Origin: an uncultured Pseudomonadota bacterium
Lineage (GTDB): Bacteria; Pseudomonadota; Alphaproteobacteria; Rs-D84
Direction of reading: 5' to 3'
DNA length: 64,000 nucleotides
NCBI GenBank assembly: GCA_947303585.1
Contig: CAMYYT010000001.1
Coordinates: 18,008 to 82,007 of the forward strand
A program made the translations under genes and the position numbers. This document shows, in pieces, positions 19,915 to 51,992 of the stretch. The notes below the pieces were generated by a model. That model saw only the letters and a program-made list of their open reading frames with translations. It was not told where the DNA came from and did not search any database. Numbering within the stretch: the stretch's first letter is position 1; the number at the start of each line of letters is the position of its first letter.

Positions 19915-20035
19915 TTCACGTATGCGTATCTTAGGCAAAAAAAAATCATATTTCAACATAAAAATGAAGGGGTCAGAAAAAGAATTTGTTCCCCTGTTTT
20001 TAAGGGCTAAAAAAGGGTATCTTTTATATAGAAAT

Positions 20036-50462: not shown

Positions 50463-51992
50463 TTATTTAGATATATTCACAATCTCTGCGTCTTCAAATA
50501 AATCCATTGCGCTGGCTACCATTGGGTCGGCAGCGATTTCAGCTTTTCTATGCTCGGATATAGTTTGTTGTCCTGGGGCGTTTTCAACGCGTTCCAATGT
50601 CCAGTTTTTTCCAGTATTATCTTTTAACCACAATGCCAATTTTTGAGTAAAATTTTTGTCATTTTGTCTGTCATAATACTTTATTCTCCCGTCTTCAAAT
50701 TCGATTATTTCAAGATTAGAATTATAATGAGAAAACAAAACTATTTCACGCGATTTTTGTAATTCTTCGCCCAAAGATTCAGCGGTTTTTATTTCTAAAA
50801 ATTTTGGTTTTTCCACTATAACAGGTTGTTCAGTTTTTTTTTCTTCGACTGGCCTTTGTTTAAGTAATTCTTGAATAGGTGGCATATCTGCGATATGCAT
50901 TAAACGAACAACCAACATATCAAAGCATTGCTTTTGATTGTTTGAAGCTTGTAATTCAGAAACAGATGCAACCATAACTTGCCATATTCTGGACAAAGTA
51001 TTCAGAGTAATATTTTCGTTTATCTTTTTTATTGTTTCACGCTGGTCAGCTGTATAAGGTGACGAAGTTACATCTTGCAGACGCAAAGACGGATGCATAC
51101 GTGTTGCCCAATGTGTCCATTCCATCATATCGTTTAACAGCATTGTTAAATCTGCACCATTATTGTATATTTCATCCAATTTATTCAACGCGACATTCAC
51201 ATCGCCAGATAAAACAGTTTTCATAAAATTAACAACTGTTCCACGGTCTGTTCTTTTAAGCATATCCAGAACGGCACCTTCGTCAACGTGTCCGCCTGTT
51301 TGTGCGATTGCTTGGTCAAGCAAAGATAAACCGTCACGTACAGAACCATCGGCGGCGCGCGCCAATAATTCATTTGCGCCATCTGATAATTCAATCTTTT
51401 CTTGTTCTGCAACCCAAGCAAAATGTTTTTTCAGAGTTTCAACCGGAACACGTGCCAAATCAAAACGTTGGCAACGCGACAAAATAGTCACAGGAACTTT
51501 TCTAATTTCTGTTGTTGCTAATATAAATATCACATGTGCAGGTGGTTCTTCCAAAGTTTTTAATAACGCGTTGAACGCGCTGGTTGATAACATATGGACT
51601 TCGTCGATAATATAAACTTTGTATCGTGCATTAGTTGGACGATAAAGTGCAGCATCTAATATTTCACGCATGTTATCGACCCCAGTATGAGAAGCGGCGT
51701 CAATTTCCATAACATCAATGTGTTGTCCTGCTGCAATTGCGCGACAGTTTTCGCATACCCCACATGGTTTTGCAGTGGCATGATCCGAAGATAAACAATT
51801 TAATGCTTTGGCCAAAATGCGTGCCGTACTAGTTTTTCCGGTCCCGCGAATACCTGTGAAAATATATGCGTGTGCGATACGTCCTGTGTTAATAGCCGTG
51901 GTTAAAGTTTTGACAAGAACATCTTGTCCAATAAGAGATTCAAAATCTTGACTGCGATACTTGCGGGCTAAGACTGTATAGTTATTTTCCAT
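50463..51992 (-). CDS. dnaX: DNA polymerase III subunit tau (and predicted gamma)
   Basis: Walker A GIRGTGKTS, Zn module CGVCENCRAI, DEVHML (Walker B) and SRC. A C-terminal tau-specific domain follows a Pro/Lys/Glu linker. Confidence 0.93.
   Translation of the reverse strand: MENNYTVLARKYRSQDFESLIGQDVLVKTLTTAINTGRIAHAYIFTGIRGTGKTSTARILAKALNCLSSDHATAKPCGVCENCRAIAAGQHIDVMEIDAASHTGVDNMREILDAALYRPTNARYKVYIIDEVHMLSTSAFNALLKTLEEPPAHVIFILATTEIRKVPVTILSRCQRFDLARVPVETLKKHFAWVAEQEKIELSDGANELLARAADGSVRDGLSLLDQAIAQTGGHVDEGAVLDMLKRTDRGTVVNFMKTVLSGDVNVALNKLDEIYNNGADLTMLLNDMMEWTHWATRMHPSLRLQDVTSSPYTADQRETIKKINENITLNTLSRIWQVMVASVSELQASNNQKQCFDMLVVRLMHIADMPPIQELLKQRPVEEKKTEQPVIVEKPKFLEIKTAESLGEELQKSREIVLFSHYNSNLEIIEFEDGRIKYYDRQNDKNFTQKLALWLKDNTGKNWTLERVENAPGQQTISEHRKAEIAADPMVASAMDLFEDAEIVNISK
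50830..50846 (-). promoter_or_regulatory. A9 slippery run in dnaX with a -1-frame stop
   Basis: The coding strand reads GAA GAA AAA AAA ACT GAA. The -1 frame reads AAA AAA AAC TGA. The A9 run is 50842-50834. Confidence 0.4.

Follow-up and report, generated by a model that had tools for sequence, protein, structure and literature searches.

Does a run of nine adenosines in the middle of a replication gene lead that gene to yield two proteins instead of one? The question is raised by dnaX in the stretch of DNA analyzed here (the window: 64,000 nucleotides of contig CAMYYT010000001.1). The host, Candidatus Enterousia, is an uncultured member of the alphaproteobacteria that inhabits the guts of herbivores as well as other guts. 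Its dnaX gene lies at 50463..51992 on the minus strand and encodes 509 amino acids followed by a stop; judged by the list of open reading frames (ORFs), by Pfam and by alignment with the Escherichia coli protein, standard decoding yields a full-length tau-like protein. The run of nine adenosines (A9) falls between the clamp-loader domains and the tau-specific C-terminal domain. We report that recoding at this run is likely, and that it is more probably transcriptional than ribosomal. On the comparisons described below, A9 is probably a slippage site of the type found in Thermus, at which a gamma-like protein of 387 amino acids, together with some of 391 or 392, would be made beside tau.

Pfam recognizes DNA_pol3_delta2, DNAX_ATPase_lid, DNA_pol3_gamma3 and DUF3646 in the window DnaX. 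Clamp-loader domains I-III take up codons 1-379 (50856..51992, minus strand) and would be common to tau and the predicted gamma-like product; the Pfam spans in this part are PF13177 at residues 23-181, PF22608 (the lid) at 188-234 and PF12169 (domain III) at 237-379. The clamp-loader part matches the gamma/tau chains of PDB entries 1jr3 and 8giy. Residues 4-366 align with residues 2-358 of E. coli tau/gamma, residue 366 of the query corresponding to residue 358 in E. coli. At the other end of the protein, codons 403-507 (50472..50786, minus strand) encode PF12362 (E = 3.2e-15), the alphaproteobacterial, tau-specific C-terminal domain, which would be absent from every slipped product. Between the two lies a linker of 23 codons rich in proline, glutamate and lysine (codons 380-402; 50787..50855, minus strand). 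Protein alignments of 23 and 80 relatives show it to be hypervariable.

The predicted slippage site, A9 itself, occupies 50834..50842 on the minus strand, five codons past domain III and 16 codons ahead of PF12362. It consists of the last two bases of GAA384, the whole of AAA385 and AAA386 and the first base of ACT387. An earlier reading of this DNA, which we call the original prediction, had already singled out the site, and its description is confirmed by the sequence. The run is at 50842-50834, at Lys385-Lys386, where the minus strand reads GTC GAA GAA AAA AAA ACT GAA; it contains an in-frame X_XXY_YYZ heptamer, A_AAA_AAA, followed in the -1 frame by AAC TGA, so that a shift gives 387 amino acids ending KKN. 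Its placement in the linker also agrees with Pfam, which ends domain III at 379 and starts PF12362 at 403.

What becomes of a message that carries more or fewer adenosines than the template? Past A9 the -1 frame closes after one codon and the +1 frame after five. The -1-frame stop, a TGA at 50830..50832 (minus strand), is the one reached by a messenger RNA (mRNA) with one extra A or by a ribosome that shifts by -1, and it closes a product of 387 amino acids ending EEKKN. The +1-frame stop, a TAG at 50816..50818 (minus strand), is reached by messages that are one A short or have gained two, and closes products ending KK(K)LNNLL: 391 amino acids, ending EEKKLNNLL, when one A is lost and 392 when two are gained. 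Loss of two As gives 386 amino acids. It is here that the original prediction has to be corrected: the KKKLNNLL ending that it assigned to one added A belongs to two, a single addition giving EEKKN and a stop, and the EEKN ending that it assigned to one removed A likewise belongs to two, a single removal giving EEKKLNNLL and a stop. Because both non-zero frames close so soon, every out-of-frame transcript would give a gamma-like protein. We call the short forms gamma-like because they keep domains I-III and lose the tau C-terminal domain.

In the mechanism that we favor, RNA polymerase on the T9 template would realign in a fraction of rounds, and dnaX mRNAs would carry A10, A11 or A8 besides the templated A9. 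Messages with A9 (and A12) would be translated into full-length tau-like DnaX of 509 or 510 amino acids. Those with A10 would meet the stop one codon past the run and yield the 387-amino-acid form with its EEKKN end; those with A8 or A11 would meet the stop five codons past it and yield the forms of 391 or 392 amino acids, ending LNNLL. Unstimulated -1 slippage of the ribosome on A_AAA_AAA would lead to the same 387-amino-acid product, with a minor share at most. Three points are inferred here: slippage of the host's RNA polymerase at A9, the amount of the short form that would result, and a benefit from that form beyond mere harmlessness.

The precedent is dnaX of Thermus thermophilus, in which slippage during transcription is programmed (Larsen et al. 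2000, PNAS 97:1683, as cited in PMC1088944 and PMC5009743). In Thermus the run is also A9, slippage is about 50%, with transcripts that have gained As yielding about 50% short product, stops occur in both non-zero frames and there are two tRNA-Lys species (PMC1088944, PMC5009743). The window gene shares the main features of this system: a single tau-encoding ORF, a sense-strand A9 after the clamp-loader core, close stops in both off-frames, two tRNA-Lys species and no need of ribosomal stimulators. The two also differ. The present host is an uncultured, AT-rich gut alphaproteobacterium with a small genome, in which slippage is predicted from sequence alone, and the run is conserved in a small group of species and not across the genus. 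Furthermore, because the run lies just five codons past domain III, unlike that of Thermus, the short product would be a minimal gamma.

Could the ribosome, and not the polymerase, do the shifting? The window gene resembles dnaX of E. coli in its slippery heptamer of lysine codons, in the UGA that the -1 frame meets one codon on and in a predicted short product without the polymerase-binding C-terminus. The E. coli site, however, is A_AAA_AAG and is accompanied by a Shine-Dalgarno (SD)-like element upstream and a stem-loop downstream; in the window both stimulators are absent, the last codon of the heptamer is AAA and there are two genes for tRNA-Lys. The site also lies directly after domain III, whereas that of E. 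coli is about 60 residues further on.

The search for ribosomal stimulators found none. No downstream stem-loop was found in the window: stretches of 74, 44 and 104 nucleotides fold with z values of -0.11, +0.75 and +0.07 relative to shuffled sequences (minimum free energies between -2.0 and -13.4 kcal/mol). Nor was a downstream structure shared by the 16 run-bearing sequences, 14 of which have z near 0 (+1.1 to -0.7); only the near-identical pair L060 and L061 folds locally, into a small structure that the others lack (z of -2.2 and -1.6, -5.7 kcal/mol). As for an SD-like stimulator, the window has just the four nucleotides AAGG, 10 nucleotides upstream, and these are missing in all of the run-bearing relatives. 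The original prediction had noted no strong stem-loop or SD-like stimulator, and folds with z about 0 and an unconserved AAGG bear it out. A terminator-like stem abutting A9 was not found either, the sole upstream hairpin lying about 40 nucleotides before the run. Finally, tRNA-Lys(UUU) and tRNA-Lys(CUU) are both encoded in the genome and the second codon of the heptamer is AAA, with no AAG at the site; the weak-pairing feature of E. coli is thereby removed (PMC5009743). Since the stimulators of the E. coli type are absent, RNA-polymerase slippage of the Thermus type is the likely mechanism.

How unusual is such a run in this genome? The genome measures 0.85 Mb with 37% GC; AAA makes up 83% of its Lys codons and GAA 95% of its Glu codons. 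Over the whole genome, coding A-runs number 555 of length seven, 100 of length eight, three of length nine and one of length ten. A9 or longer can be reached by synonymous choice in contexts of the form [E/K/Q]-K-K-[T/N/K/S/R/I/M], and of these A9-capable contexts only 3 of 73 have in fact at least A9, against 37.7 expected. At each of the genome's other three EKKT sites a GAG or AAG codon breaks up the adenosines. The ratio of coding to non-coding density of A-runs is 0.148 for runs of eight and falls to 0.026 for runs of nine, and 21 of the 26 A9/T9 runs are non-coding. The roughly 768 kb of coding sequence contain two truly internal runs of at least A9, one in dnaX and one in a gene of another contig (C13). 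The A9 run in dnaX is exceptional for this genome. Baranov et al. (2005, PMC1088944) read a coding cliff of this kind as the run length from which slippage-prone runs are selected against. The depletion at length 9 bears indirectly on how prone transcription is to slip at such a run, as does the dependence of a sister family on A10 or A11 (described below); replication slippage could also cause the depletion, and the same authors were unable to tell transcriptional from replicational slippage as the source of the cliff (PMC1088944).

Some further long runs were encountered in this survey. Four other A9/T9 runs called as coding were dismissed: crude calling had made their ORFs too long, and the runs sit at codons 4-6 of these. 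Two of these calls, on opposite strands, come from a single intergenic A9 at 19938-19946 of the window, which comes directly after a stretch resembling, by eye only, the end of a minus-strand tRNA gene. The C13 gene (C13:2475-4979, plus strand) has its A9 at EKKI, codon 85 of 834, and its product, anchored in the membrane, has a long linker of Pro/Glu repeats and matches no Pfam family; it may be a surface protein subject to slippage or phase variation. The A10 run (QKKN) on contig C5 (C5:27820-28335, plus strand) lies five codons ahead of the stop in the gene for a secreted glutaredoxin/thioredoxin-like protein, and is tolerated there, where slippage alters almost nothing.

Is the run kept in relatives at the level of the codons? 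Among cluster members of at least 90% identity, EKKTE is kept in 14 of 14 while the flanking residues vary. In seven distinct DNA sequences of near relatives (85-99% nucleotide identity) GAA AAA AAA ACT GA is invariant, which preserves the run together with the -1 TGA. ACT-GA is retained in these seven and in L057 as well, and ACT is not the preferred Thr codon. Codons for conserved residues are invariant in 34% of cases in the same near-relative sequences (Lys 39%, Thr 12%); the probability that all four codons of EKKT are invariant is 0.014, and empirically 6 of 268 four-codon windows are so (0.022). In the DnaX tree the window pairs with L041 (93% identity, also A9) within a subclade of nine species (support 98/95), seven of which have A8 or A9 at EKK[T/S/A/P]E. 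The subclade belongs to a larger clade of 35 herbivore-gut species, the close clade. Other branches of it have A8 at VEEKK, about 10 codons further on, and in all 16 of the 35 species carry a linker run of at least A8.

Two more comparisons, like the figures just given picked after the data had been viewed and ignoring shared ancestry, set the linker of the close clade against the rest of the same loci. Lys-Lys is written AAAAAA in 19 of 20 linker cases versus 197 of 311 elsewhere (p = 0.003), and A9-capable contexts are A9 in five of five linker cases versus none of seven elsewhere (p = 0.001). To judge from these sequences, A9 in dnaX is conserved among the nearest relatives, a small group of species, and not in the whole genus. 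The test of conservation proposed with the original prediction therefore has a divided outcome: all of the nearest relatives keep the run and the -1 stop, but most Enterousia species lack the run.

In many species of the more distant clade the linker is of another kind. Where the E/K-rich stretch would be, these species have a conserved motif, QQES..[RK].[RQ][DE]VKNI[FL]ADRM, and no run of at least A8 (examples are L009-L011, L013, L014, L017, L018, L023, L091, L093, L095 and L099; the motif is also seen in L103, L106, L114, L115, L117 and L119). Where might a short form come from in species without a run? In Caulobacter crescentus gamma arises by partial proteolysis of tau, as summarized in PMC5009743 from its reference 317. 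Caulobacter, too, is an alphaproteobacterium, and there a short DnaX form exists and matters; unlike that proposed for the window, its mechanism is post-translational and requires no slippery sequence. Proteolysis of this sort could be the source of the short form, if there is any, in run-less Enterousia.

Public contigs bear on the length of the run itself. One of them (L219; ENA ERZ14210013 NODE_330022, 1324 bp) is identical to the window over 1314 nucleotides but has A10, and it ends 10 nucleotides past the run, with the exact 387-amino-acid product present as a called gene. This is a weak indication of heterogeneity in run length among reads, which either a sequencing error or a DNA variant could produce; with 3x coverage, a contig end and a library of unstated type, we rejected it as decisive evidence of slippage. 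Two further assemblies come from the same or a near species. The first, L220, represents a second strain that differs at 15 nucleotides, encodes the identical protein and has A9; the second, L225, also has A9. Assembly error as the source of A9 was rejected, given these two assemblies and an ORF that is intact with A9. Phase variation at the level of DNA was likewise rejected as a role for the run in a replication gene that is essential.

A sister family of the same order, f3, offers the broadest comparison. An A10 or A11 run is present at the domain III junction in all 17 species examined (loci L201-L218, also L027-L030, L033 and L035), at a position that by alignment is within about five residues of the window's. 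Its genera differ in what the run leads to. In genus g3 (14 species) A10 is followed two to three codons on by a zero-frame stop, which gives gamma. The tau C-terminal domain is there in the +1 frame, so that tau requires messages that have lost one A or gained two. In g11 the run is A11 and a zero-frame stop follows at once, giving gamma; for tau, one A must be added. In g13 the run is A10 or A11 with tau in frame, and both off-frames close within one to seven codons. From one genus to another the shift that is needed changes direction, which fits slippage of the polymerase better than a directional shift of the ribosome; a conserved run with a variable frame is what polymerase slippage would predict, and it agrees with the criterion for transcriptional realignment used by Antonov et al. 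(2013, PMC3711429). Compared in this way, the genes of f3 show that poly-A recoding of dnaX operates in this order, and the A10/A11 site of the family, fully conserved, is by all appearances one of obligatory recoding.

The layout with two ORFs, in which a zero-frame stop follows the poly-A run, is present in g3 and g11 (15 species). It is not new in kind, because the type was described by Antonov et al. (2013, NAR 41:6514, PMC3711429): in two-ORF dnaX, tau needs recoding at poly-A, mostly A10. The window gene resembles these genes in having a poly-A run at the gamma/tau junction. Unlike them, it is a single uninterrupted ORF with tau in the zero frame, and slippage is needed for the short product and not for the long one. 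What the original prediction said of gamma/tau recoding at A9 is supported indirectly by this sister-family site, by the avoidance of A9 in the genome, by the invariance among near relatives and by the A8 or A9 runs that recur in linkers of the close clade; its emphasis on ribosomal frameshifting of the E. coli kind is not upheld.

What weighs against programmed slippage at A9? The sister subclade, also of nine species, has A7 or shorter throughout. In the close clade 19 of the 35 species lack the run, in the distant clade all 46 do, and among species that carry one its position wanders from codon 384 to codon 399. That most of the genus does without it speaks against an indispensable role. 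The nearby stops count for little by themselves: a nearby stop is expected by chance at 17% of coding positions in the -1 frame, at 32% in the +1 frame and in both at 4.6%, so that off-frame stops are weak evidence alone. Moreover, EKK written in the dominant codons gives A8 and EKKT gives A9, and the pattern is therefore partly compositional. The A10 of L219 could be an error at a low-coverage contig end, and the conservation statistics are subject to the limits stated with them.

These points lead to the rival that survives best, namely that A9 is tolerated and not programmed. An E/K-rich disordered linker and the bias toward AAA and GAA would suffice to produce the run, the slipped products would be harmless and no selection would act on them; slippage would still happen. 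We consider this possible but rather unlikely. EKKT spelled with preferred codons gives A9 with a probability of about 0.66, half of the close clade and the whole of the distant clade do without the run, and where one exists it drifts in position. The A10 of the glutaredoxin-like gene survives five codons from the C-terminus, where slippage would be harmless too, and the writing of linker Lys-Lys as AAAAAA in 8 of 10 cases in the distant clade suggests that codon choice is relaxed in linkers generally. Mere tolerance does not account well, however, for the synonymous invariance of EKKT in seven near relatives within a hypervariable linker (p about 0.014-0.022), an invariance that includes the non-preferred ACT, the codon that makes the -1 TGA. 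Slippage in an essential gene also cuts the yield of tau and hence is not free of cost, and sister family f3 depends on a like run.

A second rival holds that there is no consequential recoding: polymerase and ribosomes would read A9 faithfully and tau alone would be made. Some AT-rich bacteria may indeed have evolved suppression of slippage on such runs (Baranov et al. 2005, PMC1088944). Yet the strong depletion of coding runs at length 9 is, by the reasoning of the same authors, the sign of slippage-proneness, and without slippage the two-ORF genera of f3 could make no tau; we regard faithful reading as very improbable. Least probable of all is programmed -1 ribosomal frameshifting of the E. 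coli type as the main route to the 387-amino-acid product, which can point to the X XXY YYZ heptamer in frame, to the TGA one codon into the -1 frame and to AAGG 10 nucleotides upstream, but which is opposed by the want of a stem-loop in the window or of one conserved in relatives, by the loss of AAGG from every relative, by a second codon that is AAA and not AAG in a genome with two tRNA-Lys species, and by a direction of shift that varies with the genus in f3.

Another family of the order, f2 (L032 and L038), has DnaX proteins of 450-470 amino acids with a different, low-complexity C-terminal tail. By eye, no PF12362-like C-terminus is seen in the zero-frame tail of either; no Pfam search was made. 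The neighborhood of the gene varies as well: in the window the genes after dnaX encode a pilin-like protein and an OmpA-domain lipoprotein, whereas in f2 and f3 a ybaB-like gene comes next.

Programmed transcriptional slippage at A9 would leave the known mechanism itself unchanged; its kind is already known from Thermus. If the proposal is true, it adds another independent case in which one replication gene gives two clamp-loader subunits by slippage of the polymerase, in a lineage of uncultured alphaproteobacteria of herbivore guts. Annotation pipelines will miss such a site because the ORF is intact. Together with f3, whose obligatory run comes in three frame arrangements, the window gene provides a comparative series on how recoding sites arise and become fixed; f3 is in itself a natural series, in which changes of one base swap the default dnaX product.

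Tentatively, every stage in the evolution of poly-A recoding in dnaX may even survive in this order of gut alphaproteobacteria, four stages in all. In the first, represented by most Enterousia, there would be no run. In the second, that of the window's subclade, a young and drifting in-frame A8 or A9 would give gamma by slippage. A fixed in-frame A10 or A11 would make up the third stage, as in genus g13 of f3, and in the fourth, seen in g3 and g11, a change of one base would have swapped the default product and made tau dependent on slippage in one direction or the other, toward one A fewer in g3 and one more in g11. If this is true, an error of transcription tolerated in a disordered linker would have been the seed of obligatory recoding.

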